Origin: a bacterium
GTDB lineage: Bacteria; Patescibacteriota; Minisyncoccia; Moranbacterales; UBA2206
Assembly: GCA_030654225.1 (NCBI GenBank)
Contig: JAURXY010000027.1
Coordinates: 1-58,980 of the forward strand
Reading direction: 5' to 3'
DNA: 58,980 nt
Below are positions 2,065 to 29,023 of the stretch, one piece after another. The notes beneath the pieces were generated by a model, which searched no databases, was not told the DNA's origin, and saw only the letters and a list, made by a program, of their open reading frames with translations. Made by a program: the position numbers and the translations under genes. The first letter of the stretch is position 1. Each line of letters starts with the position of its first letter.

Positions 2065-2622
2065 ATGTTAAATATAAACGAAATAAAAACCGGAACAAAT
2101 ATCATTCAGGGCGGTACTCCATATGTTGTGCTCTATCACGAGCATTCCAAGACTGGCCGAGCTGGTTCAGTTCTTCGCACTCGTCTCAAGAATTTAGCCA
2201 ATGGAACTGTTTTGGAAAAAACTTTTCAAGGTTCAGAAGCAGTCGAAGAAGCTGATGTTTCCAAAAGTAAGGCACAATATACCTACAAGGAAAGTGACAG
2301 CTATAATTTCATGGACAATGAGTCATATGAACAATTCACTCTTTCTAAGGAGGCGCTAGGAGACAATATCAACTATCTCAAAGAAGGCACAGAAGTTTCT
2401 ATTTTGAATTTCAACGGCAATCCAATCAATATCGAATTGCCCATCAAAATAACTTTGCGCGTGATTGAAGCGCCACCAGGAGTGAAAGGCAACACCGTTT
2501 CCACTGGCGGAAAAATGGTGACACTTGAAACCGGCATCAAAGTTTCTACTCCGCTTTTTGTGAAGGAAGGTGATGAAGTCATCATCAACACAGAAAAGGG
2601 TGAGTATGTTTCTAGAGCCTAA
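2065..2622 (+). CDS. efp: elongation factor P
   Basis: MLNINEIKTG...YVVLYHEHSKTGRAGSVLRTRLKNL is a full-length EF-P pattern. I start it at the ATG at 2065, just after the rpsR stop, rather than at the track start 2038. Confidence 0.93.
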   Translation: MLNINEIKTGTNIIQGGTPYVVLYHEHSKTGRAGSVLRTRLKNLANGTVLEKTFQGSEAVEEADVSKSKAQYTYKESDSYNFMDNESYEQFTLSKEALGDNINYLKEGTEVSILNFNGNPINIELPIKITLRVIEAPPGVKGNTVSTGGKMVTLETGIKVSTPLFVKEGDEVIINTEKGEYVSRA

Positions 2623-2648
2623 ATATAAAATTTATTTTCTTCAAAAAA

Positions 2649-2675
2649 ACCAGAATTAATTTCTGGTTTTTTTAT
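2649..2675. terminator. bidirectional rho-independent terminator
   Basis: Stem ACCAGAA/TTCTGGT flanked by an A-run and a T-run. Confidence 0.7.
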
Positions 2676-2712
2676 TTTTAAGTATGCTTTATTTATTTTC
2701 GTCAATCATTCT

Positions 2713-3258
2713 CTAGTCTTCATTTTTTTCATGCATCACTTTGCCTTTTTCAATCTCCTGAAAAAGCAAAGGCTTATTTTTATTAATTTTTATCATCTCG
2801 CTTGGACTTTTTACAATAATTTGCGCTCTTTCTGCAAATTCTGAATTGTTTATCATTTTTCTAACTCCATTGATATTATTAGTTAAAACAAATAAATCGA
2901 TATCGCTATCTTTTTTGTTCGTTCCATTGGCAAATGATCCAAATAAAATGATTTCTATACTATCATTTTTTAATTTGTTTATTAATGGTTCTAATTTTGA
3001 AACATTTAATAATACTTTTATCTCGCGAATTAGATTATTTTTACTATCAGCTTGATACAAAGAAGTTCGCCCGATTTTTTTGCACTTTATAATTTTATTT
3101 TCTGACAATTTTCGCAAAGCCAAATTAACTGCCGATTTCTTAACACCTGTTTTTTTCACTATTTCTTTTTCTTGAAATTCTTTTCCGGCATTTTCCACCA
3201 AAAAAACCAGCGCCTTTTGTTGAGAGGTTATAAAAATAATCTTTTCAATTATACTCAT
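2713..3258 (-). CDS. winged-HTH plus minimal nucleotidyltransferase domain protein
   Basis: N-terminal wHTH-like segment. The central GSFANG...SDIDLFV is the GS-X-DxD signature of polbeta-type NTases. Confidence 0.7.
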   Translation of the reverse strand: MSIIEKIIFITSQQKALVFLVENAGKEFQEKEIVKKTGVKKSAVNLALRKLSENKIIKCKKIGRTSLYQADSKNNLIREIKVLLNVSKLEPLINKLKNDSIEIILFGSFANGTNKKDSDIDLFVLTNNINGVRKMINNSEFAERAQIIVKSPSEMIKINKNKPLLFQEIEKGKVMHEKNED

Positions 3259-3323
3259 ATTTTTATTCCATTATTTTGGATATATTTCCATTATACTGGA
3301 ATATCACTTATTTGTCAACTACT

Positions 3324-3400
3324 CTACTCTGACCTTTCCGCTCCTCTCCACGCCAACTCAAAAATCGCCTTTTGGGAACGGGCGATTTTGAGGGCTTTAA
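3324..3400 (-). pseudogene. remnant of the 3' end of a fourth TrmB-family gene
   Basis: The minus frame reads ...KIARSQKAIFELAWRGAERSE*, against the C-terminus ITRSQKAIFELAWRGAGD of the 8186-8938 protein. 3338-3388 matches 8209-8259 at 48 of 51 nt. There is no upstream ORF or start codon. Confidence 0.65.
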
Positions 3401-3496
3401 TTTTCCTTTTTTTGGAGCAAGCTTTGATTTTTTTTGCTAGCCTTACAAAAGTTCATTGAAAAAAGAAAGAACTTGGATTAAATTTTTTGGGATTTT

Positions 3497-4291
3497 TTAA
3501 TCAGAAAATAATTGATCTATTGAAACGGGTTTTCCTTGAGTATAAAGCAAATGAAAAAAAGTGCTTAATGACTGATAGATATTTTTGTTTTTTATCATTA
3601 CGATAAAATTTTCTTGCGGAACTAAAATAAAAGAAAGGTCCGGATATAGCAAATAAAGATTGATAGAAAAAGGAAATTGCTGATTATCAATGACGCGAAC
3701 AGTGGCTGGTCTTTGCATGGCAATTTCTTTTGTTTTTTTGGGAATATTATTAAAAATTTCCAGCATTTTTTCAGTAATGATGCCTTGTGTTATAACACCT
3801 TTTTCCAAAAATTTTTTCTGCCAGCGATGATTGAAATCATTCCCAAGTTTTTCCAAGGAATCTGCCAAGGCCTCTTCGCTTTCGATTAAAAATGCCGGGG
3901 TTTTATATTTCATAACGAGCATTGTTTCATAAAGTTTGCGTAAACCTTCAGCCGTATCAAAATATTCAACAGAAGATCTCTTGTTTTTTATATCTAACAT
4001 TTTTTCTAAGCTTGGTACCATCGTTCCAAAACTATCTATTTTTCTTTGCCATTCTTCCTGAATGACTGAAGGATTGATGGCAGAAAAATATTCTACTGTA
4101 TCTTTTTTTGCTTTTTTCAAATAACCCTTATTTAGCAAATTTTTGACATAAATATAGATTGATGTTCGCGGGATATCCACCTCTTTCGCTAATTCGGAAA
4201 TTTTTGATTTTCCCAGTTTCAAGCAAGCTAGATATATTTCCGCTTCTTGATTTTTGAGTCCTAGTTTTCTTAGTGATTCTTGATATTTCAT
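3497..4291 (-). CDS. TrmB-family HTH transcriptional regulator (module 1)
   Basis: LGL...EAEIYLACLKLG...ISELAKEVDIPRTSIYIYVKNLLNKGYL is the TrmB-type wHTH. Paralogous to 5875-6603 and 8186-8938. Confidence 0.8.
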   Translation of the reverse strand: MKYQESLRKLGLKNQEAEIYLACLKLGKSKISELAKEVDIPRTSIYIYVKNLLNKGYLKKAKKDTVEYFSAINPSVIQEEWQRKIDSFGTMVPSLEKMLDIKNKRSSVEYFDTAEGLRKLYETMLVMKYKTPAFLIESEEALADSLEKLGNDFNHRWQKKFLEKGVITQGIITEKMLEIFNNIPKKTKEIAMQRPATVRVIDNQQFPFSINLYLLYPDLSFILVPQENFIVMIKNKNIYQSLSTFFHLLYTQGKPVSIDQLFSD

Positions 4292-4297
4292 AAAAGC

Positions 4298-4328
4298 ATT
4301 TTATACTTTGTTGACTTTTTTGTCAACA
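4298..4328 (-). promoter_or_regulatory. promoter with palindromic operator of the module-1 TrmB gene (probably leaderless)
   Basis: TTGACA 4321-4326, N17, TAAAAT 4298-4303, then only 6 nt to the ATG at 4291. The palindrome TGTTGAC-T6-GTCAACA (4309-4328) overlaps the -35. Confidence 0.5.
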
Positions 4329-4460
4329 TAACAGCACGGTTAATTGCTTTATAATAGGCATAATTAATAAAAATTATATTTCTCGTTTTATTTTAAAACA
4401 AAAAACTTTTAAAATGCAATAGTTGATGTAGTTGTTTAACAATCAAAGAGGAGGTGTGAT

Positions 4461-4616
4461 ATGGCATTGGGAATTGAGGGAAGCGCCGGAAAATTAAAAT
4501 TGGTAGCGGTGGAAGAAAAAAAAGACGGGAAAAACAAAAATGAAACACCGTCAAAGATTAACAATAATGATGACAAGCGCTCAAAAAATAAAGGCGCTCA
4601 AGAAAGGGAGGTGTGA
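4461..4616 (+). CDS. 51-aa Lys-rich small ORF sharing RBS and N-terminus with the downstream radical SAM gene (candidate precursor or leader peptide)
   Basis: AGAGGAGGTGTGAT precedes the ATG. Product: MALGIEGSAGKLKLVAVEEKKDGKNKNETPSKINNNDDKRSKNKGAQEREV. The TGA stop lies 1 nt before the next ATG. It is below the ORF-track size cutoff. Confidence 0.5.
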   Translation: MALGIEGSAGKLKLVAVEEKKDGKNKNETPSKINNNDDKRSKNKGAQEREV

Positions 4617-4617
4617 T

Positions 4618-5598
4618 ATGGCAGTAGGATTTGAAGGAAGTGCGGGATCACTGATTCCGCGAATTAAAAGCATTTCTCTGTTCATTAACAATATGTGCAA
4701 CTTGCGTTGCCCGTATTGTTATGTTTCGGCTTTAAACAAAGAAGTACCTGTCGAAATCAAAGTAGATGATATTATAAAATTCATTAATGTGGTTCACGAA
4801 AAATGTGAATTGGAGAGTGTTGTCATTGTCGGTCGAGAGCCTCTTTTATCTCCCAAAGTGATGCTCGAGGTTCTTCAGGAGATACAAAAAATGGGTATTC
4901 CCAAAGTTGGCATTATAACCAATGGGACACTCATTACGAAAAAAATTGCCAAAAAATTGGCAGGGCTGGTTTCTTTTGTGGATGTTTCGTTTGACGGGCT
5001 TAAAGAAGCCCACGAAAAAACAAGAGGAAGAGGTAGTTTTGCCAAAACAGTAGCTGGCACTAAGCGTCTTCTTGATGCAGGTATAGATGTTTTTGTCCTG
5101 CATAAAGTGGACAGTGCATCTGCACCGCAACTGAACGAGTTTGCGGAATTTATGTGGAATATGGGAGTTAAAAATATCCACATATTCACATTGTATCCAA
5201 GAGACATTAAAGCCGATGTCTTTATGGATGCAATCAAAGAACTTGTGGATAGTCCGCCATCGGAAATGCTTATTTCTATTAAGGGAGATTATTTCGACAA
5301 AGAGATCCTTTCAGCACTTTCTGATTACATTTGCAATGAAAAAATGGTAGAGAGTGTAGAAGGAATATCTTTTATTGAGAAAAGCATCAAACACAACAGC
5401 ATTCTACGAGTGATGCTGGAAAATGAACCGGCGGAATTTCGCAGAGGTCTGAGAATAGACTGCTTCGGCCGGCTTGTTTTCTGTGCTGATCAAGCGCGAA
5501 GCTTAAAGCGTCCGGTGGGAAATATCTCTGAAAGTTTGGAGGAGATATTTTCACGAACATCTCTGATTCATAAAATCATAGACGACTATGTAATATAA
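4618..5598 (+). CDS. radical SAM protein (about 326 aa, short C-terminal CX6C, no full SPASM signature seen)
   Basis: CNLRCPYC (CX3CX2C) at residue 27, plus VGREPLL and GIITNGTL motifs. Start chosen at 4618 (GGGAGGTGTGAT before the ATG) rather than the track start 4540. Confidence 0.85.
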   Translation: MAVGFEGSAGSLIPRIKSISLFINNMCNLRCPYCYVSALNKEVPVEIKVDDIIKFINVVHEKCELESVVIVGREPLLSPKVMLEVLQEIQKMGIPKVGIITNGTLITKKIAKKLAGLVSFVDVSFDGLKEAHEKTRGRGSFAKTVAGTKRLLDAGIDVFVLHKVDSASAPQLNEFAEFMWNMGVKNIHIFTLYPRDIKADVFMDAIKELVDSPPSEMLISIKGDYFDKEILSALSDYICNEKMVESVEGISFIEKSIKHNSILRVMLENEPAEFRRGLRIDCFGRLVFCADQARSLKRPVGNISESLEEIFSRTSLIHKIIDDYVI

Positions 5599-5669
5599 TC
5601 AAACGGTCCCAATTGTAAAGAGCAAAGTTAGATTTTTAAATGACTAAATGCGCGGTCACATGAGGAAAA

Positions 5670-5708
5670 AGGCAGGCGTCGAGAACTTCGACCCTGCCTA
5701 TTTTTTTT
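5670..5708 (+). terminator. rho-independent terminator
   Basis: Stem AGGCAGG...CCTGCCT followed by T8. Confidence 0.75.
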
Positions 5709-5874
5709 GATTCAAAAATTTTACCGCATTCAATATTTATTTTTTGTTAACCCTTTTCAAAATTTCATGCACTCATCAAAGCATCTTACTTTTTTGTATT
5801 TATCTTCAAAGAAACTCTGAATGAACAAAATATTTTTTCTAAATTTTTTCCAAAAGTTATGACTCGAGAATAAT

Positions 5875-6603
5875 CTATTTCGAAGTTTTCCACAAATATT
5901 CAAAAATATTTTTCATTGCTTCGGCGATTTTTTGGTTTTTAATAATAACGCCAGAGGGATTTTTTTTGTCGAAAGCGACAACTGCCAATTTGTCATCGTA
6001 AACATTAATTTCGATTTCAAGATCTTGAAAAAGTTTGATAAATTTCATCTCACGAAGCATTTCTTTGGCATTTTTCAAATGCTTTCTGCCTTCAATACTT
6101 TCCGGGATCAGATTTTTTACCCTCACTCCATGCGCCACTCTTTTAGGCAAATAATCATTCAAAAAGAAATCTTCCATATCATTTTGTGCGCTTTTGAAAT
6201 CCGTGATGGCATAAATCATTTTATTGGTATTTTCCCGCCAAGTATCAGCATAAAGATTTTTCACGCCTTCCATTCCTTCGAAATAGCTTACTTTTGATAG
6301 CAAGGATTTATTCTGATTTTGATTTTTTGCTGATCTAATAAGTTTTTGGTTTTCCAGTTTGAAATAATCATTTCTTTTTGCGATCCAAGTTTCCAAATCT
6401 TTCTCGCTTATCGCTTTGAAAACATCCTTATTGCCAACGCTAATTTTGGAAACCAAGCCTTTTTCCAAAAGTCTTTCCAAGACGGGATAAACAGTGGTCC
6501 TGTTTATCATATTTTCTTTCGCCAATTCACAAACCGAGACCTCTCCCAATTTATACAGACTAGCCAAAACATCCCTTTCTTTTTCGCTTAAAATATAATT
6601 CAT
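5875..6603 (-). CDS. TrmB-family HTH transcriptional regulator (module 2)
   Basis: LSEKERDVLASLYKLGEVSVCELAKENMINRTTVYPVLERLLEKGLV wHTH, with the same C-terminal architecture as its paralogs. Confidence 0.8.
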   Translation of the reverse strand: MNYILSEKERDVLASLYKLGEVSVCELAKENMINRTTVYPVLERLLEKGLVSKISVGNKDVFKAISEKDLETWIAKRNDYFKLENQKLIRSAKNQNQNKSLLSKVSYFEGMEGVKNLYADTWRENTNKMIYAITDFKSAQNDMEDFFLNDYLPKRVAHGVRVKNLIPESIEGRKHLKNAKEMLREMKFIKLFQDLEIEINVYDDKLAVVAFDKKNPSGVIIKNQKIAEAMKNIFEYLWKTSK

Positions 6604-6623
6604 AAAGTTTTCATTACGTCTTA

Positions 6624-6684
6624 ATAATACGCCTTGTTGTCAATCGTGTCAACACTTTGACAAATATTTTTATTATGATATTAT
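6624..6684. promoter_or_regulatory. back-to-back divergent promoters with three GTCAA/TTGAC half-sites
   Basis: Minus strand: TTGACA 6647-6652, N17, TATTAT 6624-6629. Plus strand: TTGACA 6657-6662, N16, TATTAT 6679-6684. An extra TGTCAA lies at 6638-6643. Confidence 0.5.
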
Positions 6685-6753
6685 TTTCTATCCTGCTATT
6701 AGAGCAGTGTGTTATTTAAAAACTTAATAAAACAACAATATAGGAGGTGTAAA

Positions 6754-6906
6754 ATGCTTACCCCAGAAGAATTAGCAATAATAATAAAATTTATTTCAGA
6801 AAAACTAAATAAGCCACTGAAAGAGGTGGCGGAGGAAGTCTTGGAAGCGCAACGGGAAATGACAGAAGAATCTCTTAAAGAGGAGTTAAAGAAGTTTAAA
6901 AATTAA
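6754..6906 (+). CDS. 50-aa acidic helical small protein
   Basis: TAGGAGGTGTAAA precedes the ATG at 6754. The track start 6709 lacks an RBS. Confidence 0.45.
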   Translation: MLTPEELAIIIKFISEKLNKPLKEVAEEVLEAQREMTEESLKEELKKFKN

Positions 6907-6937
6907 GGTTTAATTAAATAATTGGGAGGGGATAAAA

Positions 6938-7195
6938 ATGAAAAGAAGAAAGGTTCATAGCTACTTTATAGCAATCAAAGAAATCAAAGAACATCCGAAT
7001 TTTAAAAAAATATTAGAAAGTTTGGAAACTGAGGGATTTGAGTTGGAAGAAGTAGAGATTACGAAAGAAAAACTTGGTGATTTTAATTTTTTGAAAAAAT
7101 ACATGAGACAAATAAACTTTCTCGAAGCAGGAAGAAAATTTAAAGAAAGTGGTTTCGAAAATGGATATTCCTACTTCTTAATATTCGAAATCTAA
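6938..7195 (+). CDS. hypothetical protein (85 aa)
   Basis: GGGAGGGGATAAAA precedes the ATG. No motif recognised. Confidence 0.5.
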   Translation: MKRRKVHSYFIAIKEIKEHPNFKKILESLETEGFELEEVEITKEKLGDFNFLKKYMRQINFLEAGRKFKESGFENGYSYFLIFEI

Positions 7196-7230
7196 ACAGT
7201 TAAAATTTTTCAAAAAAAAGGAGAAAAGAC

Positions 7231-8109
7231 ATGTTAAAAGAAAAAATCACCAATCCGTGGTTAAGATTCCAGATTATGGATATTCTTAATATTTCCGAAG
7301 AAGAAAAAATGGAAATAACTAAGAAAGCATTTCTTTTTATTGTTAAATGCACAGGAGATTTGTATATTCCATATGATGAAATAAAAAAATATCTTGCAAG
7401 AATTACCAAGAAATATCCTGTCATTGAAAAAATAAAAGACGAGGAAATACTCGAGTCATTGAGATGTTTTATTACTAAAACACCTGGGACATATCATAAA
7501 ATTACTCATTTGGAAATGTTGACTACTATTAAGATTTTTTTCAAAAATCTTGAAACCATTAAAAAAATTGAAAGGATGATCTATCGTTCATATGTACTTG
7601 CTCCCCCTTATGAACCATCGCATGCTTTCCATATTCAATATAAATGGGCGCTATCAAAAAAAGAAAAAAATGCAATAGTTCGGGATGTTATTAAAGAAAG
7701 AACGGGCTATCAAAGTGCAATATTTCTTGCAAAACGTTTCAAGATGCCAACAAAAAAACTATATTGGGCGCTTAGTGAAGAAGAAAAAATGGAAATAACC
7801 GAAAAAATTATAAAGGGATATCCTGATAATTGGAAAAAGAAGCTTGAAAAAATATTCGGCAATAAGAGAGCAACTAGTGCCATCCGGAAATATTATGAAA
7901 GACTTCTAATTAAAAACAATTATGATGAAGCCGAGGTCGTGGGAAAATATCCTACTATAATTTTAAAAGTATTATTATCAAAAATAAATAAATGTTATCT
8001 ATGGGATGCTTCTGAATTCGCGCAAAGATTTATGCCTGAAAGGAAAGAAATCTTAAAGGAACTAAAGATCCTTGAGGATGCAGAGATGGCATTTTATGCC
8101 ACTTTATAA
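7231..8109 (+). CDS. hypothetical protein (292 aa) with an internal duplication
   Basis: AAGGAGAAAAGAC precedes the ATG. The 23-nt exact repeat GAAGAAGAAAAAATGGAAATAAC occurs at 7297-7319 and 7777-7799, encoding SEEEKMEIT twice, 160 aa apart. Confidence 0.6.
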   Translation: MLKEKITNPWLRFQIMDILNISEEEKMEITKKAFLFIVKCTGDLYIPYDEIKKYLARITKKYPVIEKIKDEEILESLRCFITKTPGTYHKITHLEMLTTIKIFFKNLETIKKIERMIYRSYVLAPPYEPSHAFHIQYKWALSKKEKNAIVRDVIKERTGYQSAIFLAKRFKMPTKKLYWALSEEEKMEITEKIIKGYPDNWKKKLEKIFGNKRATSAIRKYYERLLIKNNYDEAEVVGKYPTIILKVLLSKINKCYLWDASEFAQRFMPERKEILKELKILEDAEMAFYATL

Positions 8110-8133
8110 AAAAGAACAAGGAACAGAACAACA

Positions 8134-8165
8134 GCCAGGAAACCCATTGCGGTTCCTGGCTTTTT
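8134..8165. terminator. bidirectional terminator between module 2 and module 3
   Basis: Stem GCCAGGAA/TTCCTGGC followed by T5. Confidence 0.7.
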
Positions 8166-8185
8166 ATATTTTAGCTTTTTTAAAA

Positions 8186-8938
8186 TTATTTATTTTCCAG
8201 TAGATCTCCCGCTCCTCTCCACGCCAACTCAAAAATCGCTTTTTGGGAGCGGGTGATTTCTTCGGATTCGATAATCATCCCAAACATTTCTGTGCCATAG
8301 CTAGCAATGGCGATTTTGTTTTTGTAGATATTAGTTTCATTAGAAACAGGAAAATCTTTTTCGCTAAGAATTTTCACTTCGCGGAGTTGCTCTGCATTAT
8401 TTTCCATATACTTTTCAATTCCAGAAAAATGCTTATAGATCCCTCGAATTCGGATGTTTTTTTCAACTCTTCGCGCGATATAATCATTTGTGTAATCTGG
8501 CAGATTCTCCAAAACGCCTTCGCCGACATAGGCCAAAATTTCATCACCCTTCTTGAGACTGCGCAAACTGTCTTCATACATTTCCTTAATTCCTTCCGCC
8601 CCTTCGAAATAGCGAATGAAAGGTTTTGTTTTGGGCGAGTTATATAAATTTTGCAAACTTGGCATTATGGAATTTATCCTTTCCTCTTTTTCTTTGAGTT
8701 TCTTGATTAGTATTTCCGGATCAGCCGGAGAAAAATATTTCACATTACCTTTGATGGATTTATAAATCAAACCTTCTTTCATTAGTTGATTAACAATATC
8801 ATAGACAGTTGGACGCTTCAGTCCGACTTTTTTTGCCAGAAGATAGGCCGTCGCTCCGCCCATTTCCAAGCAAGCCAAATAAACTTCCGCTTTTTTGTCC
8901 TCCATTCCAAATTGTCTCAAAATTTCTTTTATTTCCAT
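8186..8938 (-). CDS. TrmB-family HTH transcriptional regulator (module 3)
   Basis: FGMEDKKAEVYLACLEMGGATAYLLAKKVGLKRPTVYDIVNQLMKEGLI wHTH. Confidence 0.8.
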   Translation of the reverse strand: MEIKEILRQFGMEDKKAEVYLACLEMGGATAYLLAKKVGLKRPTVYDIVNQLMKEGLIYKSIKGNVKYFSPADPEILIKKLKEKEERINSIMPSLQNLYNSPKTKPFIRYFEGAEGIKEMYEDSLRSLKKGDEILAYVGEGVLENLPDYTNDYIARRVEKNIRIRGIYKHFSGIEKYMENNAEQLREVKILSEKDFPVSNETNIYKNKIAIASYGTEMFGMIIESEEITRSQKAIFELAWRGAGDLLENK

Positions 8939-8949
8939 ACTTTTTTGCC

Positions 8950-8972
8950 CCCTCTCCTTTACAAGGAGAGGG
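8950..8972 (-). promoter_or_regulatory. 5'UTR hairpin pairing CCCTCTCC with GGAGAGGG (possible SD sequestration)
   Basis: Perfect 8-bp stem with a 7-nt loop. The 3' arm GGAGAGGGGG ends 9 nt before the ATG at 8938. Confidence 0.4.
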
Positions 8973-9013
8973 TTGGGGTGAGGTTTATTCGTAATTTTCC
9001 GACTACTGAATAT

Positions 9014-9129
9014 ATAATAGCATAACTAGCCTAAAAGTCAATATATAAAGGCTTTATTATATTATTTAACAACAGCCTTAAATATGTTATGACGGTAAAT
9101 ATTGAATATCTCTATTAGAAGTGTATAAT
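9014..9129. promoter_or_regulatory. divergent promoters of module 3
   Basis: Minus strand: TTGACT 9036-9041, N16, TATTAT 9014-9019. Plus strand: TTGAAT 9102-9107, N16, TATAAT 9124-9129. Confidence 0.5.
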
Positions 9130-9182
9130 GGACAGTTCCGGTTCATTGACAATTAAAAACAATTCAAATAGGAGGTCCTAAA

Positions 9183-9767
9183 ATGAGCATAAAAAAAGAG
9201 ATTGCTCGCGAAGTCTTAAAGGATATTGGGAGGATTATTAAATTAAAAATAGATAATCTTCTTAAATTACTTTGTAAGGCTTTATACCCCGTATGCGGTA
9301 ACTTATCCAATAACATTCAAAGTAAATTAGAGGGATTATTGGGGCACGAATATTATGATGCGAAGAAAGCGTTTAATGTAAGTTTGAAAATAAATAAGTT
9401 TATTTATTCTCTTTCGGCGGGAGCATTTATGGGATATGACATTAGTAAAATTCCCATAAAAGAATTTGTGAATAACGACCTATTAAAACCAGAGCCTGCT
9501 CGCGGGTTCGAAATAGTTATTTTTGCTATTTGCACAGCAACTGTATTTTTAGGTATCGGCTTGCTCGAAGATTGCATAAGGAAACAAATTAGCAAAGATA
9601 ATCGAGAAAATTGGAACGGAGTAGGAGTTTCTGCTTCCTTGGTGGGGAAAATTATTTCTCTTCCGTTCGACATCGCCACGCTTTGTTCAGATTATTACTA
9701 CCATAACATCTTAGATTATTTATGGATGGTTGAATACAGGATAAAAAACAAGGAGAAGAAAAAATGA
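9183..9767 (+). CDS. hypothetical membrane protein (194 aa)
   Basis: TAGGAGGTCCTAAA precedes the ATG. Two or three hydrophobic helices. Confidence 0.6.
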   Translation: MSIKKEIAREVLKDIGRIIKLKIDNLLKLLCKALYPVCGNLSNNIQSKLEGLLGHEYYDAKKAFNVSLKINKFIYSLSAGAFMGYDISKIPIKEFVNNDLLKPEPARGFEIVIFAICTATVFLGIGLLEDCIRKQISKDNRENWNGVGVSASLVGKIISLPFDIATLCSDYYYHNILDYLWMVEYRIKNKEKKK

Positions 9768-10114
9768 AATTTCCATGGTGGCATTATATGTTCTTAGTGA
9801 TTTTTTGGATTAATATCATGTTTCCAATAAACCACTATTTATTAAGCTACAAAGAGGGGACTTATATTGATATCATAAACAACACTTTTAAGAATGAGAT
9901 TCCTCTTGGATATTCAAAAGTATTCATAAAAAAAGTAATATTTACAGCTTCAAAAGTAGAATATGTTGTTGTTTTTACTGACAATAAAGTGGCTGTATTG
10001 TCATATCGAGATGCCAGGACTATGCACAAAGCCTGGAAAGAGGCACAAGATGATAAGGAGCGGAAAATCAAGGAGAAAATTAGAAGGAAATGCCTTATCG
10101 ATAGATACAAATGA
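9764..10114 (+). CDS. hypothetical membrane protein (116 aa)
   Basis: AAGGAGAAGAAAAA precedes the ATG, with a 4-nt overlap on the upstream gene. N-terminal TM helix. Confidence 0.55.
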   Translation: MKFPWWHYMFLVIFWINIMFPINHYLLSYKEGTYIDIINNTFKNEIPLGYSKVFIKKVIFTASKVEYVVVFTDNKVAVLSYRDARTMHKAWKEAQDDKERKIKEKIRRKCLIDRYK

Positions 10115-10140
10115 AATTTATACAAACAAGGAGGAGAAAA

Positions 10141-10464
10141 ATGACTGAAGCAACAAAATCAAACATCCTGAAAATTATGAATGCATTCATTTTGGATACA
10201 AATTTTGAAATAGATTGCAATGATACGGAATTTTCCATCAGCATCCATGATTATCATGATTATCAGAATAAATTAGTTATAAACATTCTGTATAATATAA
10301 ATAACGACTATATAGAATGTCAATTAAATACAGACAAAGATGTTTCTCCTGACACGCTATTACCAAGAGTTATAGATATCTTCAATATAGCGAGAGCACA
10401 AGGAATTAAAAAAATTAAATTGAGATCGCTCGATCAGAATATAGAGAATATTGAACTGATCTAA
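10141..10464 (+). CDS. hypothetical protein (107 aa)
   Basis: AAGGAGGAGAAAA precedes the ATG at 10141. The track start 10111 has no RBS. Confidence 0.5.
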   Translation: MTEATKSNILKIMNAFILDTNFEIDCNDTEFSISIHDYHDYQNKLVINILYNINNDYIECQLNTDKDVSPDTLLPRVIDIFNIARAQGIKKIKLRSLDQNIENIELI

Positions 10465-10479
10465 TAATTTTAAAACTCT

Positions 10480-10509
10480 CCCCCAAAGCCATCGCGCTTT
10501 GGGGGTTTT
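10480..10509 (+). terminator. rho-independent terminator closing module 3
   Basis: Stem CCCCCAAAGC/GCTTTGGGGG followed by T4. Confidence 0.75.
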
Positions 10510-10629
10510 ATTTATTCTAAAAAATGAATAATCAACTTTGTGCATATGGATAGAAAGTAATTATTTTAGAATTAAAAAAATCTGAATTTCTAATTCAGAT
10601 TTTTTTGAAGTTTTTTTCGGGGATTATTC

Positions 10630-10773
10630 TTACAATAATCCGACTGTATTAAAAAGTGTAATTGTGAGAACTGGCACTAGGGCCACGAGGATTGCGAAAT
10701 TCATTTCATTCGCTTCTAATTCCTCAGCTTCCCGCTTTTCACATGTTGGGCATTTGCATTTTGTTTCTCCCAT
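10630..10773 (-). CDS. 47-aa tail-anchored peptide with an N-terminal CxCxxC motif
   Basis: MGETKCKCPTCEKREAEELEANEMNFAILVALVPVLTITLFNTVGLL. It is bracketed by the hairpin/T-run at 10575-10607 and the upstream terminator at 10834-10856. Below the ORF-track cutoff. Confidence 0.35.
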   Translation of the reverse strand: MGETKCKCPTCEKREAEELEANEMNFAILVALVPVLTITLFNTVGLL

Positions 10774-10903
10774 ATTTTTGTTTTTCCCCTATTTAAAAGG
10801 GTTTATTAATAATTAACTTGTTTTTAATAAATAAAAAAAGCGGTGTTCACCCGCTTCCTTATTTAATATATCTATTATACATCATCCAAGAGCAAAAGTC
10901 AAG

Positions 10904-11593
10904 CTAAATCGCAATATTCAAGAAAGCGTTGATGGCTGTGCCGAGAAAAATGCGCAGAGGTGTAGAAAAAAAGAAAATGAAAAACAACAGTATGGCGAAA
11001 CCAAATTGCTCAAGCATGGCTTGCATTTCAATTCTAACAGGGAAAATAGTAAATAATATTTTGGAACCATCCAATGGAGGAATGGGAATTAAATTAAAAA
11101 AAGCCAAGAAGACATTGATGATCACAATGATAATTAGAATTTCATAAAATATGGTACTTACCGATCCAGAAATTAGCCCAGAAACTGTTGACCATTCATT
11201 GACATTTTCAATAATATCATTCTTGAGGTACATTGGTATAGCGATAAATCTGGCCAAAAGTGCAGCAAGAAGTGCCACTGTCAAATTTATCCCCGGACCA
11301 GCCAGCGCCACTATCATTGGCCCCCATTTTTGATTCTTTAGATTATATGGGTTATATGGCACTGGCTTGGCCCAGCCAAAAGCAAAACCGAAAGAAAGAT
11401 ACATGAAGAGTGGCGCAAAAAACGAGCCCACCATATCCAAATGCTTGAAAGGATTAGCAGTAAGTCTTCCGGCATATTTAGCCGTCGTGTCACCCAATTG
11501 TAGCGCCGCTAGCCCATGAGCCACTTCGTGGATAATCACGCTATAGAGAAGTATTGCGATATAAAAAACAATTAGGACTATTTCATTTAACAT
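10904..11593 (-). CDS. site-2 protease family (M50) zinc metalloprotease
   Basis: HEVAHGLAA (HExxH), NLIPIPPLDGSKIL, and a polytopic membrane profile. Confidence 0.85.
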   Translation of the reverse strand: MLNEIVLIVFYIAILLYSVIIHEVAHGLAALQLGDTTAKYAGRLTANPFKHLDMVGSFFAPLFMYLSFGFAFGWAKPVPYNPYNLKNQKWGPMIVALAGPGINLTVALLAALLARFIAIPMYLKNDIIENVNEWSTVSGLISGSVSTIFYEILIIIVIINVFLAFFNLIPIPPLDGSKILFTIFPVRIEMQAMLEQFGFAILLFFIFFFSTPLRIFLGTAINAFLNIAI

Positions 11594-11607
11594 ATTTAGT
11601 TTGTTTT

Positions 11608-11693
11608 ATTCGCAGTATTCGCATGCATTCGCCCGCCTCGCGTCGACGAGCAATCGTCTTGCGAGTCGAGGCGGGTTGATTCGCATCGCGATC
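11608..11693. repeat. 85-nt hairpin element, copy 1 (second copy at 55226-55310)
   Basis: ATTCGCCCGCCTCG-CGTCGACGAGCAATCGTCTTGCGAGT-CGAGGCGGG flanked by TTCGCA/ATTCGCA words. About 90% identical to copy 2. Confidence 0.8.
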
Positions 11694-11759
11694 ACTTGCT
11701 TTTATTACCCTTATATGCTACATTATATCTTGTAATAAATCAAATCAACCGATTCGGAT

Positions 11760-11800
11760 ATTCGTAGATTCGCATCTAATTCGCAGATTCGCATCGGTAC
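11760..11800 (+). repeat. ATTCGTAGATTCGCAT word motif upstream of rpmB
   Basis: ATTCGTAGATTCGCATCTAATTCGCAGATTCGCATCGGTAC, the same motif and spacing to the ATG as upstream of ssb and rpsR. Confidence 0.7.
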
Positions 11801-11806
11801 ATTTTT

Positions 11807-11974
11807 ATGTCTAGAGTATGTGATGTTTGCGGTCGAGGTTCTCAGGTTGGAAACAAGGTGAGCCATTCACAAGTGAAAACTTTGCGAAAATATATGATCA
11901 ACTTGCAAGCCAAAAAAATTGAAGGTAAGTCCCGAAAAGTCTGCACTAAATGCATAAAGACCATGGCTAAATAG
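11807..11974 (+). CDS. rpmB: 50S ribosomal protein L28
   Basis: MSRVCDVCGRGSQVGNKVSHSQVKTLRKYMINLQ is the L28 signature. Below the ORF-track cutoff, so I translated it by hand. Confidence 0.9.
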   Translation: MSRVCDVCGRGSQVGNKVSHSQVKTLRKYMINLQAKKIEGKSRKVCTKCIKTMAK

Positions 11975-12037
11975 AAAAAAGAGTTTTAAAAAAATCCCCG
12001 AGAATATCGGAGATTTTTTATTTATCGCAAAGTTTTT

Positions 12038-13117
12038 TTATAGACCTAGAGTTTTAACCAATTGTTTAACAAGAGTACAAACAACAGCTGGGGCCATTAA
12101 ACTATAAACTTCGATTCCCTCATCATCTTTCACTGTGAAAGGTCGTTCTAAGGTTTTAATTTCACCGGTCTTTTCATCGCGTTCATAATAAAATTCAGGA
12201 GTAATTTCATAATCATCAACTGTTTCTTTCGCCACATCGGCTGGCACAGCATTTCTAACCATTCCCTTTACAACGCCATGCAAAGAAAACACCTTGCTGA
12301 TTAATTTGTCATCCATCTCTAATCTTTCTCGAAGTGATTCAATTCCTAAATTATCACCTTCTTTTGCAACCATTCGCACATTATTACATTCTGGATTATC
12401 ACATTTTAAATAGAATTTTTTCTCTTCTTCATCATAACCAACTTCCTTAGTAGCTAATAATTTTAGATTTCTTGGAGTATGACAAATTGGACAAACCACT
12501 CGATATTTCATTCGTTCATCAATAACTGCTTCTGGGATATCAATTGCTAGGAAAATATCTGGGTCTTTTCTATAATCAATAAGTTCTTTAAAAAACATTG
12601 AGTAAGAAATTTGATCAAAGTTTCTTGGAAAACCATCAATAAAGAGTGACTTTTTATCCATTTTGTCAATTTCTCTTTTGACTAATGTCATAATAAATTC
12701 ATCAGGAAGAAGTGTTTTTGTGTCTCTACCAAGTAACGCTTCAATACCCTGTTCAGGAGAGATATATCCTCGATAATTTTCATGCAAATATGCTAATAAT
12801 TCTTTTCTTTCGTTTTCATCTTCCATAGCCGCATGCACATCTCTCACAACATCACCCACAGAAATATGCCCGATCTTATCTTTACCAAAAATTTCCATAA
12901 GTAATTTTGTATAAGTTCCTTTACCAGCATTTTTTTTGCCTAAAAAATAGGCTATAAATGTTTTTCCTTCAGAAAAATATTTTCTCAATTTTTCAATGTC
13001 TCCGCCTACTTTTGCTTCAAAATATTCTTTTCTTTCATCTAAATCAGAAAGATTGAATTTTCTGTCTATGCCTTCCACCTTCGTCTTCTGTAGTGGAAAT
13101 TCCTTTTCATACTTCAT
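12038..13117 (-). CDS. adk: adenylate kinase family protein with an N-terminal extension and a Cys4 LID
   Basis: P-loop GKKNAGKGT, VGDVVR, IDGFPRNFDQ, and a CPICH...CDNPEC zinc LID. Confidence 0.75.
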   Translation of the reverse strand: MKYEKEFPLQKTKVEGIDRKFNLSDLDERKEYFEAKVGGDIEKLRKYFSEGKTFIAYFLGKKNAGKGTYTKLLMEIFGKDKIGHISVGDVVRDVHAAMEDENERKELLAYLHENYRGYISPEQGIEALLGRDTKTLLPDEFIMTLVKREIDKMDKKSLFIDGFPRNFDQISYSMFFKELIDYRKDPDIFLAIDIPEAVIDERMKYRVVCPICHTPRNLKLLATKEVGYDEEEKKFYLKCDNPECNNVRMVAKEGDNLGIESLRERLEMDDKLISKVFSLHGVVKGMVRNAVPADVAKETVDDYEITPEFYYERDEKTGEIKTLERPFTVKDDEGIEVYSLMAPAVVCTLVKQLVKTLGL

Positions 13118-19281: not shown

Positions 19282-19890
19282 TTATTTACCCGAAGACGCT
19301 CCTTCTATATCCTGAGATAAATTAAATTTCGCACCACCCACTGCTGCTCTCTTTCTAGAAATTTCTTCAAATTTACCAGTAATATAACCCATCGCACCAG
19401 CTACTGCGCTAAGACCACCAATCGAATATAAAATAGCTCCACCACCATCAGGACCAGCATCCATGCCCATATAAGTCATCAAAGCGCTCATAGAAATTCC
19501 CACCGCACCAATAACTTTCATTAGTTTGTCGCTATTGATATCTTTCATCTTAGCATTTAACTTTTCACTATTTAATAATTTTATTCTATCCAATAGTTGC
19601 GGGCTATCTTCAAAATTTTTCATCATTTGAGTTTTATTTTTGAAAAGCCTTTCAAATTCTTCCTTAATTTCCGGATTAAGTCTTTTTTCATTTTCCTCAT
19701 CCTCTGAAACTTGACTGAGTTCAGTAGCATCATAATTTCGCGGATCTTTCTCATATGATTCCGCTGATTTTTTATCCACACCAGCTCGATAATCCTTCAC
19801 TCCTTTTTGATGAGATAGATATGCCAAGTCCCCTTCTAACTTCGAGTCAGGCTCTTGACTTGTTGATGATTTTTTAAAACTTTCAAACAT
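19282..19890 (-). CDS. hypothetical protein with a Gly-rich C-terminal membrane segment
   Basis: ORF track. The hydrophobic stretch is VIGAVGISMSALMTYMGMDAGPDGGGAILYSIGGLSAVAGAMGYI. Confidence 0.55.
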   Translation of the reverse strand: MFESFKKSSTSQEPDSKLEGDLAYLSHQKGVKDYRAGVDKKSAESYEKDPRNYDATELSQVSEDEENEKRLNPEIKEEFERLFKNKTQMMKNFEDSPQLLDRIKLLNSEKLNAKMKDINSDKLMKVIGAVGISMSALMTYMGMDAGPDGGGAILYSIGGLSAVAGAMGYITGKFEEISRKRAAVGGAKFNLSQDIEGASSGK

Positions 19891-19921
19891 ATTTTTTATT
19901 TCCCTTAATAATTACATCCGT

Positions 19922-19953
19922 ATTATACCCCCCCCCCCAGCAACAATCGTCAA
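19922..19953 (-). promoter_or_regulatory. promoter with a G11 homopolymer in the spacer
   Basis: TTGACG 19948-19953, a 20-nt spacer (ATTGTTGCT plus G11 at 19928-19938), then TATAAT 19922-19927, 31 nt upstream of the ATG at 19890. Confidence 0.55.
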
Positions 19954-20037
19954 ATCAAAAAAACGCCTCATATTTCCCGAAGCGTTTTTTGTATTGTATT
20001 CAAGGTAGAGACGAGGCAGTGCCTCGTCTCTACAATT

Positions 20038-20319
20038 TTATATCTTCAAATCCGAATATTCCCGCAAAGTTTTAAGCGTTGCTTGGACAGTTTCATTTTC
20101 GGTATTGAGCAGTTTCACATTTTTGAATTTTTCAGCGATTTCAAAAAGAACTTCCTTTGCCCAAGAAGGAGCGAGTGCCTTTACTCCAGAAAAATCCAAC
20201 TCAATCAACTCATCTGATGGTATATTTTTCAGTAAATCTGATTGCATAGTTAAAAAAGCTCTTTGCCCATCCGAAGGAGATAATAATAATTCACCGAATT
20301 TTTTAATTTCAATTCTCAT
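20038..20319 (-). CDS. STAS-like (DUF4325-type) small protein
   Basis: The pattern ...IELDFSGVKALAPSWAKEVLFEI resembles STAS-like DUF4325 proteins. Recognised from memory only. Confidence 0.5.
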   Translation of the reverse strand: MRIEIKKFGELLLSPSDGQRAFLTMQSDLLKNIPSDELIELDFSGVKALAPSWAKEVLFEIAEKFKNVKLLNTENETVQATLKTLREYSDLKI

Positions 20320-20433
20320 ACGCTAATTTTTCTTGTGAATTTTCCGTAGTTTAATTGTAGCCTATTTTGACACTAAAAGTCAAAAATCAAAAAACGCCTC
20401 AGATTTTTTACAGCGTTTATATCAAATCAAATC

Positions 20434-20572
20434 GCGGACAGTCCGCAATTTAGCGGACTGTCCGCTGAGATATACTAAACCATAATGAGGGTGAGTATTC
20501 ACCTGTCAATACTCACCCCCTCTAAAGTCTCCTAACGCTTCACTTTAGGAGACACTAAACTTTATAAAGTTT
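20434..20572. repeat. string of four strong hairpins/palindromes downstream of rpoC
   Basis: GCGGACAGTCCGC-N6-GCGGACTGTCCGC; GAGGGTGAGTAT..ATACTCACCCCCTC; GTCTCCTAA..TTAGGAGAC; AAACTTTATAAAGTTT. Confidence 0.7.
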
Positions 20573-20601
20573 GTCAATATTTAAAGATTTTATAAAGTTT
20601 C

Positions 20602-20634
20602 AAAAAACGCCTCGGATTTCCCAAGGCGTTTTTT
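20602..20634 (-). terminator. rpoC terminator (member of the AAAAAACGCC...GGCGTTTTTT family)
   Basis: Hairpin AACGCCT(TGG)...(CCG)AGGCGTT with T6. Similar units lie at 19955-19990 and 42816-42849. Confidence 0.75.
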
Positions 20635-20651
20635 GTATTCTACAAAATAAT

Positions 20652-28087: not shown

Positions 28088-28405
28088 TCAAGCATTTTTG
28101 ACTAATTTCCCATGTTTTCGGATTGTCTCCTTCGCCAACTGTTGAATCATCTTCTGCTCGTTGTCCGAAGCTAAATGAAAAGGGTTTTGCCATTCAGCAT
28201 GCATAGCCACCAGCTTCAGTGGAACAATTTGATTTTCATTGAAGAAAAGAGAATCCAACACTTTTGCGAAACGAGTGTTTTTTATAGCACTCAAAGTAAG
28301 GGGATTCTTTTCTGTATAGCGAATTGATATGCCGATATATACGATACCAACAATCGAACAAACCAATCCTACCCAGGGAGAAAAACAGAAAAAATTGTCA
28401 ATCAT
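28088..28405 (-). CDS. hypothetical membrane protein (105 aa)
   Basis: AAGGAGGGTATT precedes the ATG at 28405. The track start 28429 lacks an RBS. One TM helix, followed by a terminator at 28031-28067. Confidence 0.5.
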   Translation of the reverse strand: MIDNFFCFSPWVGLVCSIVGIVYIGISIRYTEKNPLTLSAIKNTRFAKVLDSLFFNENQIVPLKLVAMHAEWQNPFHLASDNEQKMIQQLAKETIRKHGKLVKNA

Positions 28406-28431
28406 AATACCCTCCTTCATAATTACCATTT

Positions 28432-28749
28432 TTATTGAGCTGAGAAAGAACTAGCTGGAGGAACTCCAAGATATGCTAAAATATTTATAGTGCCTTTCAG
28501 TTGGGCTACTGTTTTAGCATAAGAGTCTATCAGCTCTTGGCTCGTCTTCCCTTGTGAGCTTTTAATGGCCGCCTGATAAAAAAGATTTGTTTCTATCTGA
28601 AAGATTTCCAGAAATCGTTCTGGTATTTTTTCTTCATATCGGAAAAGTTCCCAAAGCTTTTCCGGTAGCCCTCCCTCATCGCTACAAACGTAATTTATCA
28701 ACAATTTGTTTATCTCCTGTGGTTCAAAAACATTCGTCTGTTTTTTCAT
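28432..28749 (-). CDS. hypothetical protein (105 aa)
   Basis: GGAAGGAGGATGTA precedes the ATG. Confidence 0.5.
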   Translation of the reverse strand: MKKQTNVFEPQEINKLLINYVCSDEGGLPEKLWELFRYEEKIPERFLEIFQIETNLFYQAAIKSSQGKTSQELIDSYAKTVAQLKGTINILAYLGVPPASSFSAQ

Positions 28750-29023
28750 TACATCCTCCTTCCTTTATTGTTTTGAAACCTAAGTTAAATAAATCTCCAG
28801 GGGCATAATAATAAGTAATGTCATCCTCTTTTGTATACCAAATCACTTCTTGCCCAAAAAATTTACCGCATCTTGTCGCGGAAGCAACCCCAGCGATTCT
28901 TACTTTTTCTCCGAAACAAGAAATCAATGTATCCCCGACAAATACATGGGAAAGTCCCATTGTTTTATCGCTTGAAGCATCAATGCTTATCTTTCCGCTG
29001 TGTGCTCTAACTTCTATTTTCAT
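28724..29023 (-). CDS. hypothetical protein (99 aa)
   Basis: TGGGAGGTGTT precedes the ATG at 29023. The track start is 29086. Confidence 0.45.
   Translation of the reverse strand: MKIEVRAHSGKISIDASSDKTMGLSHVFVGDTLISCFGEKVRIAGVASATRCGKFFGQEVIWYTKEDDITYYYAPGDLFNLGFKTIKEGGCNEKTDECF

Follow-up and report, generated by a model that had tools for sequence, protein, structure and literature searches.

Divergent regulator-target pairs are the commonest arrangement of bacterial one-component regulators. Regulators of the TrmB family bind palindromic sites, such as TACTN3AGTA and TATCAC-N5-GTGATA, and their archaeal members act both as repressors and as activators (PMC4158304). Archaeal TrmBL2 is described as a chromatin protein and global repressor (PMC3031468, PMC4877046). 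The present analysis concerns a window of 58,980 nt (assembly GCA_030654225.1, contig JAURXY010000027.1), whose best protein matches point to Candidatus Moranbacteria, within the Candidate Phyla Radiation (CPR, or Patescibacteria). The window is AT-rich (GC content 0.365) and harbours three genes for TrmBL2-like regulators, R1, R2 and R3, each facing a short operon, here called its cargo. A literature search found no paper linking TrmB to Patescibacteria or CPR. The reading that we favour, and consider reasonably probable, is that the region from 2.7 to 10.6 kb is a variable island downstream of efp, composed of three self-contained regulatory units (modules 1 to 3) and a stray nucleotidyltransferase gene, with unit 1 being fixed and units 2 and 3 serving as platforms for exchangeable genes.

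The regulator genes lie on the minus strand, head-to-head with plus-strand operons, as proposed in a preliminary description of this DNA; their coordinates were confirmed (Table 1), and all three products exceed the gathering cut-off of the PF01978 TrmB model (25.6 bits). R1 faces the open reading frame (ORF) of a 51-aa peptide and a gene for a radical S-adenosylmethionine (rSAM) enzyme, R2 faces ORFs of 50, 85 and 292 aa, and R3 faces ORFs of 194, 116 and 107 aa. The regulators are built of an N-terminal TrmB winged helix and a C-terminal domain of ~170 aa. A profile of seven regulators (positions 11-248) aligned over its full length to TrmBL2 (5BOX/5BPD, residues 14-264, E = 1.8e-6), and its N-terminal half aligned to TrmB (3QPH, E = 9e-9). 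In Pfam only the winged helix was matched in R1-R3, with no match to the effector (sugar)-binding domain of TrmB, PF11495, and the NCBIfam models for TrmB and TrmBL1 cover only the N-terminal 85-155 residues, far under their cut-offs. Pairwise identity among R1, R2 and R3 is 24-28% in alignments that run end to end, therefore they are old paralogs and not recent local duplicates. No additional TrmB paralog was found in the window.

Relatives were compared in loci fetched from related CPR and Moranbacteria genomes, labelled L001-L091. R3 is the most conserved of the three regulators, with orthologs of 63-96% identity in 13 GTDB genomes and in L091; an exact-sequence look-up returned no identical record. 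Orthologs of R2 are 51-66% identical. Arrays of TrmB modules with divergent operons are also present in other Moranbacteria (L005, L008, L009 and L061).

Close orthologs of R3 face different genes. In L007, a Moranbacteria contig with an R3 96% identical to that of the window, the control region is ~85% identical at the nucleotide level up to position 9156, and R3-type control regions are conserved until ~10 nt before the Shine-Dalgarno sequence (SD) of the cargo. Between SD and terminator, the window encodes proteins of 194, 116 and 107 aa, L007 of 109 and ~122-149 aa, and L008 of 59, 126 and 369 aa, and no similarity was detectable between the three sets; a candidate homology of C3c, the third module 3 protein, with the 126-aa protein of L008 was rejected as not significant. 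Downstream of these unrelated genes, all three loci share the terminator CCCCAAAGCCAT[CT]GCGCTTTGGGG, which in L008 differs by a single base of the loop and in L007 by one base at the stem end on either side; similarity starts again just a few nucleotides 5' of its stem. The sole homolog of C3a, the first module 3 protein, is found in L091, is 90% identical and again adjoins an R3 ortholog (95% identical). Since L091 keeps C3a at this level, the differences among the window, L007 and L008 represent replacement and not divergence. Considering all twelve R3 loci (the window and 11 orthologs), cargo is shared in two pairs only, L009/L016 (an rSAM enzyme and a methyltransferase) and L011/L012 (a 217-aa protein). 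The right flank amounts to only ~45 nt and the neighbourhood beyond it differs in L008, so the whole unit 3 also moves.

Similar to R3, orthologs of R2 face different strong-SD cargo, namely a 543-aa protein, a 191-aa membrane protein, or a pair of 184 and 300 aa. Because R2 and R3 orthologs precede unrelated genes, the partnership of these regulators is with locus and promoter, not with cargo. The proposal that each cargo has one dedicated regulator consequently survives only for R1 and the peptide/rSAM pair, and fails for R2 and R3. In the same way, lack of synteny between regulators and cargo in other genomes, named in the preliminary description as the observation that would speak against its cassette array, is what we found for modules 2 and 3, while module 1 is syntenic.

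The exchanged genes of modules 2 and 3 had no match in Pfam, NCBIfam, PADLOC or PHROGs. C3a and C3b possess one crude hydrophobic segment each, and C3c is soluble. For C2c, the 292-aa protein of module 2, a word-index search found no homolog, and an exhaustive HMMER search recovered 31 remote homologs. Its AF2 model (pLDDT 86) is an all-alpha solenoid or repeat protein without a fold match in the PDB, and its profile has no match in PDB or Pfam. Module 2 and 3 cargo genes, like the nucleotidyltransferase gene, have a GC content of 0.28-0.34, compared with 0.378 +/- 0.041 in the other genes of the window.

The island genes also differ from their surroundings in translation signals. All eight cargo genes are preceded, at a distance of 3-12 nt from the start codon, by an SD core of 5 nt or more, as are only eight of the 52 other window genes that reach 80 aa (Fisher p = 5e-6). 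The start-codon picker prefers starts with an SD in all genes alike, which makes the test conservative. The contrast, already pointed out from the window, holds over a survey of 82 CPR loci fetched with the R3 subgroup. There, 85 of 109 TrmB-like genes (78%) have a divergent upstream gene, at a median spacer of 222 nt; such an SD was found in 4/85 regulators and 56/85 first cargo genes, and in 97 of all 154 cargo genes (63%) against 90 of 659 background genes (14%, p = 6e-34). The surveyed cargo proteins are mostly singletons (117/154), and the majority have no Pfam domain; the families recognised include ten rSAM enzymes (five with SPASM), seven methyltransferases, three periplasmic binding proteins and three receiver domains. 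Elsewhere in the window, orphan genes for three small proteins (105, 105 and 99 aa), each with a consensus SD, form a second cluster on the minus strand (28088-29023 and 29375-30262), beside an antirepressor gene of the phage AntA/AntB type (PF08346, 2.4e-22). In this genome, a strong SD generally seems to mark accessory or acquired genes.

The control regions of the units, 150-245 nt in length, show a parallel contrast. TTGAC/GTCAA half-sites are present in all three regulator-cargo intergenic regions, and in the surveyed loci TrmB divergent regions hold 4.19 half-sites per region versus 1.69 in other divergent regions of the same loci (2.5x). The inverted repeat TTGWC-N6-GWCAA (W = A or T) occurs seven times in 78 TrmB control regions, with 0.055 expected.

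These observations bear on the plainest alternative, that R1-R3 are ordinary local transcription factors beside their targets, clustered by chance in a recombination-prone region and accompanied by nothing beyond normal gene turnover. The prevalence of divergent regulator-target layouts and the age of the paralogs fit it, as do the 24 of 109 family members that are not divergent from their upstream gene and one C2c homolog that has no TrmB neighbour. Against it stand the precise exchange of cargo between an SD-proximal leader and a terminator that are both conserved, with R3 still 94-96% identical, the likewise swapped R2 cargo, the recurrence of arrays in other genomes, and the family-wide SD and half-site contrasts. 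We regard it as unlikely.

Module 1, in contrast to modules 2 and 3, is fixed. An R1 ortholog stands beside the rSAM ortholog in every context recovered (L001, L005/L006, L087/L088, L089 and L090); where compared, the R1 orthologs are 42-43% identical, and in the other contexts the R1-type gene is a 263-aa TrmB gene. R1, peptide and rSAM enzyme are linked in the window, L001, L087, L089 and L090, and form a syntenic unit in six lineages counting L005/L006. The rSAM gene starts at 4618 and not at 4540, because the SD sits there and the database holds a 326-aa product from that start. Its close family is small: among 5.8 billion proteins six other members were found, 60-66% identical and one of them a frameshifted fragment, after which identity falls to ~33%.

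Just upstream of the rSAM gene, a strong-SD ORF for a peptide of 40-54 aa was found in five lineages; it ends at or inside the SD and start of the rSAM gene, a layout suggestive of translational coupling. The five peptides all start with MA[LMV]G[FI]EGSAG[KQ]L followed by an unconserved charged tail, and all rSAM orthologs start with MA[VLM]G[FI]EGSAG (P0002 with one extra N-terminal Cys), hence the N-terminal decapeptide MA[LVM]G[FI]EGSAG is common to peptide and enzyme. Its codons vary synonymously at Ala2, Glu6, Gly7, Ser8, Ala9 and Gly10, so selection acts at the protein level in both ORFs. The first 12 residues, which make up the conserved part of the peptide, offer no conserved Cys, Trp or Lys. 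No shared peptide/enzyme N-terminus was found in the other rSAM cargo types, and a literature search for GFEGSAG gave no match. In L005 (10001-10925) and L006 (1030-1954) the rSAM ortholog is frameshifted in two independent assemblies, the peptide ORF is absent and the R1-type regulator is intact; peptide and enzyme look there like a pair that decayed together.

The AF2 model of the rSAM enzyme has a mean pLDDT of 88.6, with residues 1-11 disordered. Its top Foldseek matches are SkfB, anSME, viperin and MoaA, also CteB and SuiB, and the enzyme is a member of the SPASM/twitch clade. A CX3CX2C motif next to a small ORF is present, as in the rSAM clusters for ribosomally synthesised and post-translationally modified peptides (RiPPs). 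PF13186 (SPASM) is not matched in the enzyme, no auxiliary-cluster cysteine set was detected and only one C-terminal Cys is conserved among the orthologs; PF05402, the leader-recognition element, is not matched either, and module 1 holds no further genes, thus no protease or exporter. With low confidence, module 1 can be described as a minimal RiPP-like pair, in which the decapeptide would be the recognised or modified element and modification of the peptide is putative. The copy carried by the enzyme could reflect self-modification, mimicry or a shared partner.

Glycyl-radical enzymes carry the fingerprint RVxG[YF]. The idea that the rSAM enzyme is a glycyl-radical activase, considered for the G[FI]EG motif, was set aside: the motif lies in the disordered N-terminus, the structural neighbours belong to the SPASM/twitch clade, and no glycyl-radical activase model was among the 25 best NCBIfam matches. 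In L001, the R1/rSAM module is surrounded by three copies of a pair composed of a 204-222-aa protein and an AbiEii nucleotidyltransferase (4995-6469, 11236-12623 and 19722-20993), and a restriction-modification system and an nSTAND ATPase are encoded near it.

The nucleotidyltransferase gene of the window is preceded by a perfect 12/12 promoter at 3318-3290 in a promoter scan and is absent from L007; its product matches NCBIfam MntA below the cut-off and the PADLOC candidate PDC-M05A at 1e-20. This gene is a passenger of the island. It supplies one ground for considering the region a defence, toxin or competition island, in which the TrmB-like proteins would play a BrxR/CapW-type role. This alternative is compatible with the variable-island reading and would specify the function of its cargo. 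Further grounds are the AbiEii pairs, restriction-modification system and nSTAND ATPase near the L001 module, the hypervariability of a cargo rich in small membrane proteins, and the resemblance of the rSAM core to viperin as well as to peptide maturases. Nevertheless, the viperin match concerns the generic rSAM core only (in PADLOC, the enzyme matches only that part of pVip), the module 2 and 3 cargo is without PADLOC or PHROGs matches, IMG/VR contained no relatives of the R3 group, the module 1 rSAM enzyme or the palindrome described below, and BrxR and CapW are, to our knowledge, of a different protein family. We consider a defence function improbable, at about the level of chance clustering.

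In the control regions, candidate operators stand at defined positions. The inverted repeat beside R1 (core at 4311-4326) overlaps the -35 box of R1, and a TGTTG(T/A)C-N6-GTCAA sequence beside the R1 start is invariant in five R1-type intergenic regions from different genomes. R1-type regions also keep the promoter geometry of -35, 17 nt, -10, 6 nt and ATG, from which the R1 mRNA is probably leaderless. In the R2 region the promoter scan predicted divergent promoters at 6652-6624 (-) and 6657-6684 (+), each with 11/12 matches. Candidate palindromes with N9 or N10 spacers were rejected, as they turned out to be direct TTGAC repeats.

In the R3/cargo control region, the -35 of the R3 promoter is predicted at 9041-9036 and the cargo promoter at 9102-9129. 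Two conserved blocks were found here, TTCCGACTACT at 8997-9007, invariant across all eight R3-type regions aligned, and TTGACAATTAA at 9146-9156, which the four closest regions share unchanged and others retain in part; the latter lies downstream of the predicted cargo promoter, in the predicted 5' untranslated region (UTR) of the cargo. A 48-nt hairpin in the 5' UTR of R3 is an insertion specific to the window, absent from L007, L010, L012, L013 and L018. At the corresponding site of L008 (~5935-6000) and L009 (~5950-6000), which separates the start codon of R3 from the conserved block in the 5' UTR, another hairpin is inserted. Small palindromic elements may preferentially insert at this site, or the hairpin may be a translational control element. 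An Rfam scan of the leaders detected no known RNA element or riboswitch above chance.

Conserved, position-specific repeats of this kind speak against xenogeneic silencing, according to which TrmBL2-like proteins would coat AT-rich DNA non-specifically, each cassette bringing its own silencer. The full-length profile alignment to TrmBL2, the chromatin and global repressor role reported for that protein, and the AT-richness of the module 2 and 3 cargo and nucleotidyltransferase genes would suit a silencer. However, R3 is kept while its cargo changes, and a single SD-less regulator gene per unit suggests a low abundance, unlike that of a chromatin protein. Silencing is therefore very doubtful.

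L007 is colinear with the window over rpsF, ssb, rpsR and efp, and continues straight into R3; positions 2646-8206 of the window, containing the nucleotidyltransferase gene and modules 1 and 2, are consequently inserted DNA. Beyond the 3' end of R1, the preliminary description recognised the relic of a fourth regulator. The sequence is real, yet it is no decayed paralog: 51 nt are 94% identical to 8209-8259 in R3, and the copy is 91-94% identical to the R3 3' ends of L007, L008, L009 and L091. Compared with the 24-28% identity among the paralogs, this marks a recent duplicate of the end of R3 itself. The copy and R3 flank modules 1 and 2 as a direct repeat, and on this arrangement the copy is the junction scar of the insertion that brought both modules. 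An inserted, modular accessory array is thus upheld by L007 and by the arrays of other Moranbacteria, and its description as duplicating has to be given up, in view of the low identity of the paralogs.

Further repeats border the island. Similar A/T-flanked hairpin terminators are found after efp (2643-2673) and at the far end of the island, and in L007 at ~2175-2210 and ~330-365, where a remnant of the efp 3' end (gagagccTAA) precedes the distal copy. The remnant and the repeated hairpins point to recombination at the 3' end of efp. The window also contains a single, degenerate copy of an element, B, which in relatives is the perfect 38-nt palindrome AATAATCAAATTTGTGCATATGCACAAATTTGATTATT. 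B abuts the 3' end of R3 in L007 and L091. L007 also has a second, degenerate B at the opposite end of its R3 module, after which the stop region and terminator of efp are repeated. In L005 it occurs at 8277-8314, 8964-9001 and 11009-11046 and brackets an R1-type TrmB and rSAM unit. B likewise encloses such a unit in L006, a 2067-nt contig that starts and finishes in it, which suggests either a mobile unit or a repeat whose many copies interrupt assembly. In L018, B (3169-3206 and 4438-4475) follows the R3 cargo terminator and brackets another cassette. This cassette (3261-4366) has two genes, for a HATPase_c_2-like protein of ~180 aa and a STAS-like DUF4325 protein of ~70 aa; a HATPase_c_2-like and DUF4325 cassette is also found beside R3 in L009 (6798-7650). 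Around the R1 modules of L001, L087 and L090 only ordinary terminators and no B palindromes were found, and no tRNA was found near the island junctions. B could be a recombination site, a repetitive extragenic palindromic (REP)-like repeat or a bidirectional terminator.

An integron-like system, with B or the terminator hairpins as recombination sites for an enzyme acting in trans, would account for the bracketing by B in L005, L006, L018 and L007 and for the sharp replacement boundaries, but is hardly to be expected: neither an integrase nor a transposase was found within the modules or close to them, every module has its own promoter, the window lacks B between its modules and the R1 modules of three relatives lack it altogether, and B could simply be a REP-like repeat or bidirectional terminator.

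The reading of the region as a variable island of regulatory units can be put as a mechanism. Each unit consists of an SD-less TrmBL2-like regulator, a control region with divergent promoters, a short accessory operon in which every gene has a consensus SD, and an intrinsic terminator; terminators were predicted for each operon in the preliminary description, and three hairpins with U-tracts bear this out, with the ends of the second and third refined (Table 1). A regulator dimer would bind the TTGWC-type repeats of the control region, and as these overlap the -35 box of the regulator itself, autoregulation would result; unit 3 has, in addition, a conserved site immediately 3' of the promoter of its cargo. 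Transcription of the cargo would be gated by a signal read through the C-terminal domain, and the transcribed cargo would then be translated efficiently. Unit 1 is a fixed partnership, RiPP-like in appearance, of R1, a 40-54-aa peptide and the SPASM/twitch-clade rSAM enzyme. In units 2 and 3 the regulator and control DNA (in unit 3 also the terminator) stay constant, and the genes between them are swapped for unrelated, mostly orphan ones, often encoding small membrane proteins. The array would have arisen by insertion and recombination at a hot spot near efp, not by local duplication.

Several points weigh against this reading. Single half-sites are to be expected wherever there is a promoter, since TTGAC doubles as the -35 consensus, and those overlapping the -35 boxes, which had been listed for every intergenic region, are partly just -35 boxes, even though they are present throughout and the N6 repeat is enriched. 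The R3 control region has no N6 palindrome. The TTGWC-type repeats are putative operators, and the regulators may act as repressors or as activators. The C2c homolog without a TrmB neighbour departs from the unit layout, no integrase, transposase or other recombinase was found in or near the modules, and the comparisons rest on metagenome-assembled contigs. For module 1, the RiPP reading is weak because a SPASM domain, a RiPP recognition element (RRE) and a protease or exporter partner are missing, and the peptide might be only a coupling upstream ORF.

More tentatively, we propose that the TrmBL2-like expansion in CPR provides fixed expression platforms, formed by regulator, bidirectional control region, terminator and sometimes the 38-nt palindrome, in which unrelated sets of orphan genes would be exchanged by recombination at SD and terminator boundaries, as a regulated cassette system for accessory functions without an integrase. 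One platform would carry a hitherto undescribed peptide/rSAM pair, whose enzyme copies the decapeptide of its presumed substrate in a disordered N-terminus, suggesting self-modification or substrate mimicry.

Table 1. Features of the efp-downstream island and its borders (positions in the window)
Feature	Position	Strand	Remarks
efp	2065-2622		left neighbour of island
Winged helix-turn-helix and nucleotidyltransferase gene (MntA / PDC-M05A-like)	2713-3258	-	Pfam Polbeta/NTP_transf_2; GC 0.277
Copy of the last ~17 codons of R3	3335-3388	-	IARSQKAIFELAWRGA; 51-54 nt
R1, TrmBL2-like, 264 aa	3497-4291	-	PF01978 57.5 bits, 1.2e-15; no SD
Candidate R1 operator, inverted repeat GTTGAC-N6-GTCAAC	4310-4327		overlaps R1 -35 box
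51-aa peptide	4461-4616	+	MALGIEGSAGKL and non-conserved charged tail; stop 1 nt before rSAM start; strong SD
rSAM enzyme, 326 aa	4618-5598	+	PF04055 1.5e-24; CNLRCPYC motif; N-terminus MAVGFEGSAG
Module 1 intrinsic terminator	5670-5708	+	hairpin and U-tract, -23.8 kcal/mol, z = -5.4
R2, TrmBL2-like, 242 aa	5875-6603	-	PF01978 39.3 bits, 6e-10; no SD
Inverted repeat TTGTC-N6-GTCAA in R2 control region	6637-6652		GTCAAC and TTGACA sites beside it
Module 2 cargo: 50 aa, 85 aa, C2c 292 aa	6754-6906, 6938-7195, 7231-8109	+	all with strong SDs
Module 2 intrinsic terminator	8133-8161	+	hairpin and U-tract, -17.1 kcal/mol, z = -3.1
R3, TrmBL2-like, 250 aa	8186-8938	-	PF01978 52.7 bits, 3.8e-14
48-nt hairpin insertion in R3 5' UTR	8939-8986	-	window-specific; AAGGAG pairs with CTCCTT
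Conserved R3/cargo control region	8987-9182		alignment of eight orthologous regions; promoter scan
Module 3 cargo: C3a 194 aa, C3b 116 aa, C3c 107 aa	9183-9767, 9764-10114, 10141-10464	+	all with strong SDs
Module 3 intrinsic terminator	10480-10505	+	hairpin and U-tract, -19.1 kcal/mol, z = -4.1
Degenerate copy of 40-nt B element	10527-10567		3' of module 3 terminator
Hairpin resembling efp terminator	10577-10607		far end of island
Small Cys-rich membrane protein and M50 protease genes	10630-11593		right neighbours of island

At the right border, the first neighbour (10630-10773, minus strand) encodes a 47-aa protein with a CxC...CxxC pattern and one hydrophobic segment; it adjoins the M50 protease gene, is 81% conserved in L007 and has no family match. 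In L065 (7282-8758), which comes from a CPR genome at greater distance, efp and recA are convergent neighbours. The gap between both genes in the window is 10.6 kb, filled by the island and the M50, rpmB and adenylate-kinase-like genes.

A different type of repeat was found at housekeeping genes. Tandem 19-nt repeats, TTCGTAGATTCGCAT(N4), are located at 1155-1242, 1734-1820 and 11761-11797, 10-15 nt upstream of the starts of ssb, rpsR and rpmB, all of which have no SD. Inverted copies are present further upstream, and the window contains 14 matches to the repeat versus 1.6 expected. These repeats might be a strong promoter, operator or translation element of housekeeping genes.

The genomes of CPR bacteria are tiny, and knowledge of their transcription factors and accessory genes is scarce. 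A regulator family repeatedly coupled to hypervariable, SD-rich, mostly orphan operons would indicate where these episymbionts keep and control fast-changing genes, which are candidates for host interaction, competition or defence. The combination of an SD-less regulator facing a strong-SD operon with a terminator is a handle for finding accessory cassettes in metagenome-assembled genomes. The peptide/rSAM pair is compact and testable, and may represent new rSAM chemistry.

Compared with TrmB and TrmBL2 of Thermococcales, the family of R1-R3 has the PF01978 winged helix, a similar length (~250-264 aa), a full-length profile alignment and palindromic motifs adjoining its genes. It differs in being bacterial, in lacking PF11495, in its candidate half-site TTGWC, and in having many paralogs per CPR genome, each with a local variable operon, instead of one global sugar regulator or chromatin protein. 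Module 1 resembles the rSAM RiPP clusters of SkfB (sporulation killing factor) and of StrB/SuiB (streptide) in the small ORF directly upstream of the rSAM gene, the adjoining dedicated regulator and an enzyme whose best structural neighbours are SkfB, anSME, CteB and SuiB; unlike them, it is without the SPASM/twitch cysteine set, RRE, protease and exporter, and the N-terminus of the enzyme carries the decapeptide of the peptide.

In BrxR/CapW-type systems, a conserved DNA-binding sensor stands upstream of varied defence cargo in variable islands. The logic here is alike, with another protein family and no recognised defence genes among the cargo. Integrons similarly place exchangeable coding units behind a fixed expression platform, and in some relatives of the window hairpin repeats mark the boundaries; here, however, there is no integrase ORF, the units have promoters and regulators of their own, a cassette comprises several genes and B is absent between the window modules. 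In hypervariable loci, such as those for capsules or bacteriocins, conserved flanks allow alleles to be replaced by homologous recombination, and likewise in the present units conserved flanks (regulator and leader on one side, terminator on the other) bracket non-homologous cargo in close relatives. Local one-component regulators with divergent operons are known, and the present case is a CPR-specific expansion of TrmBL2-like regulators with cassette-like turnover of their cargo.

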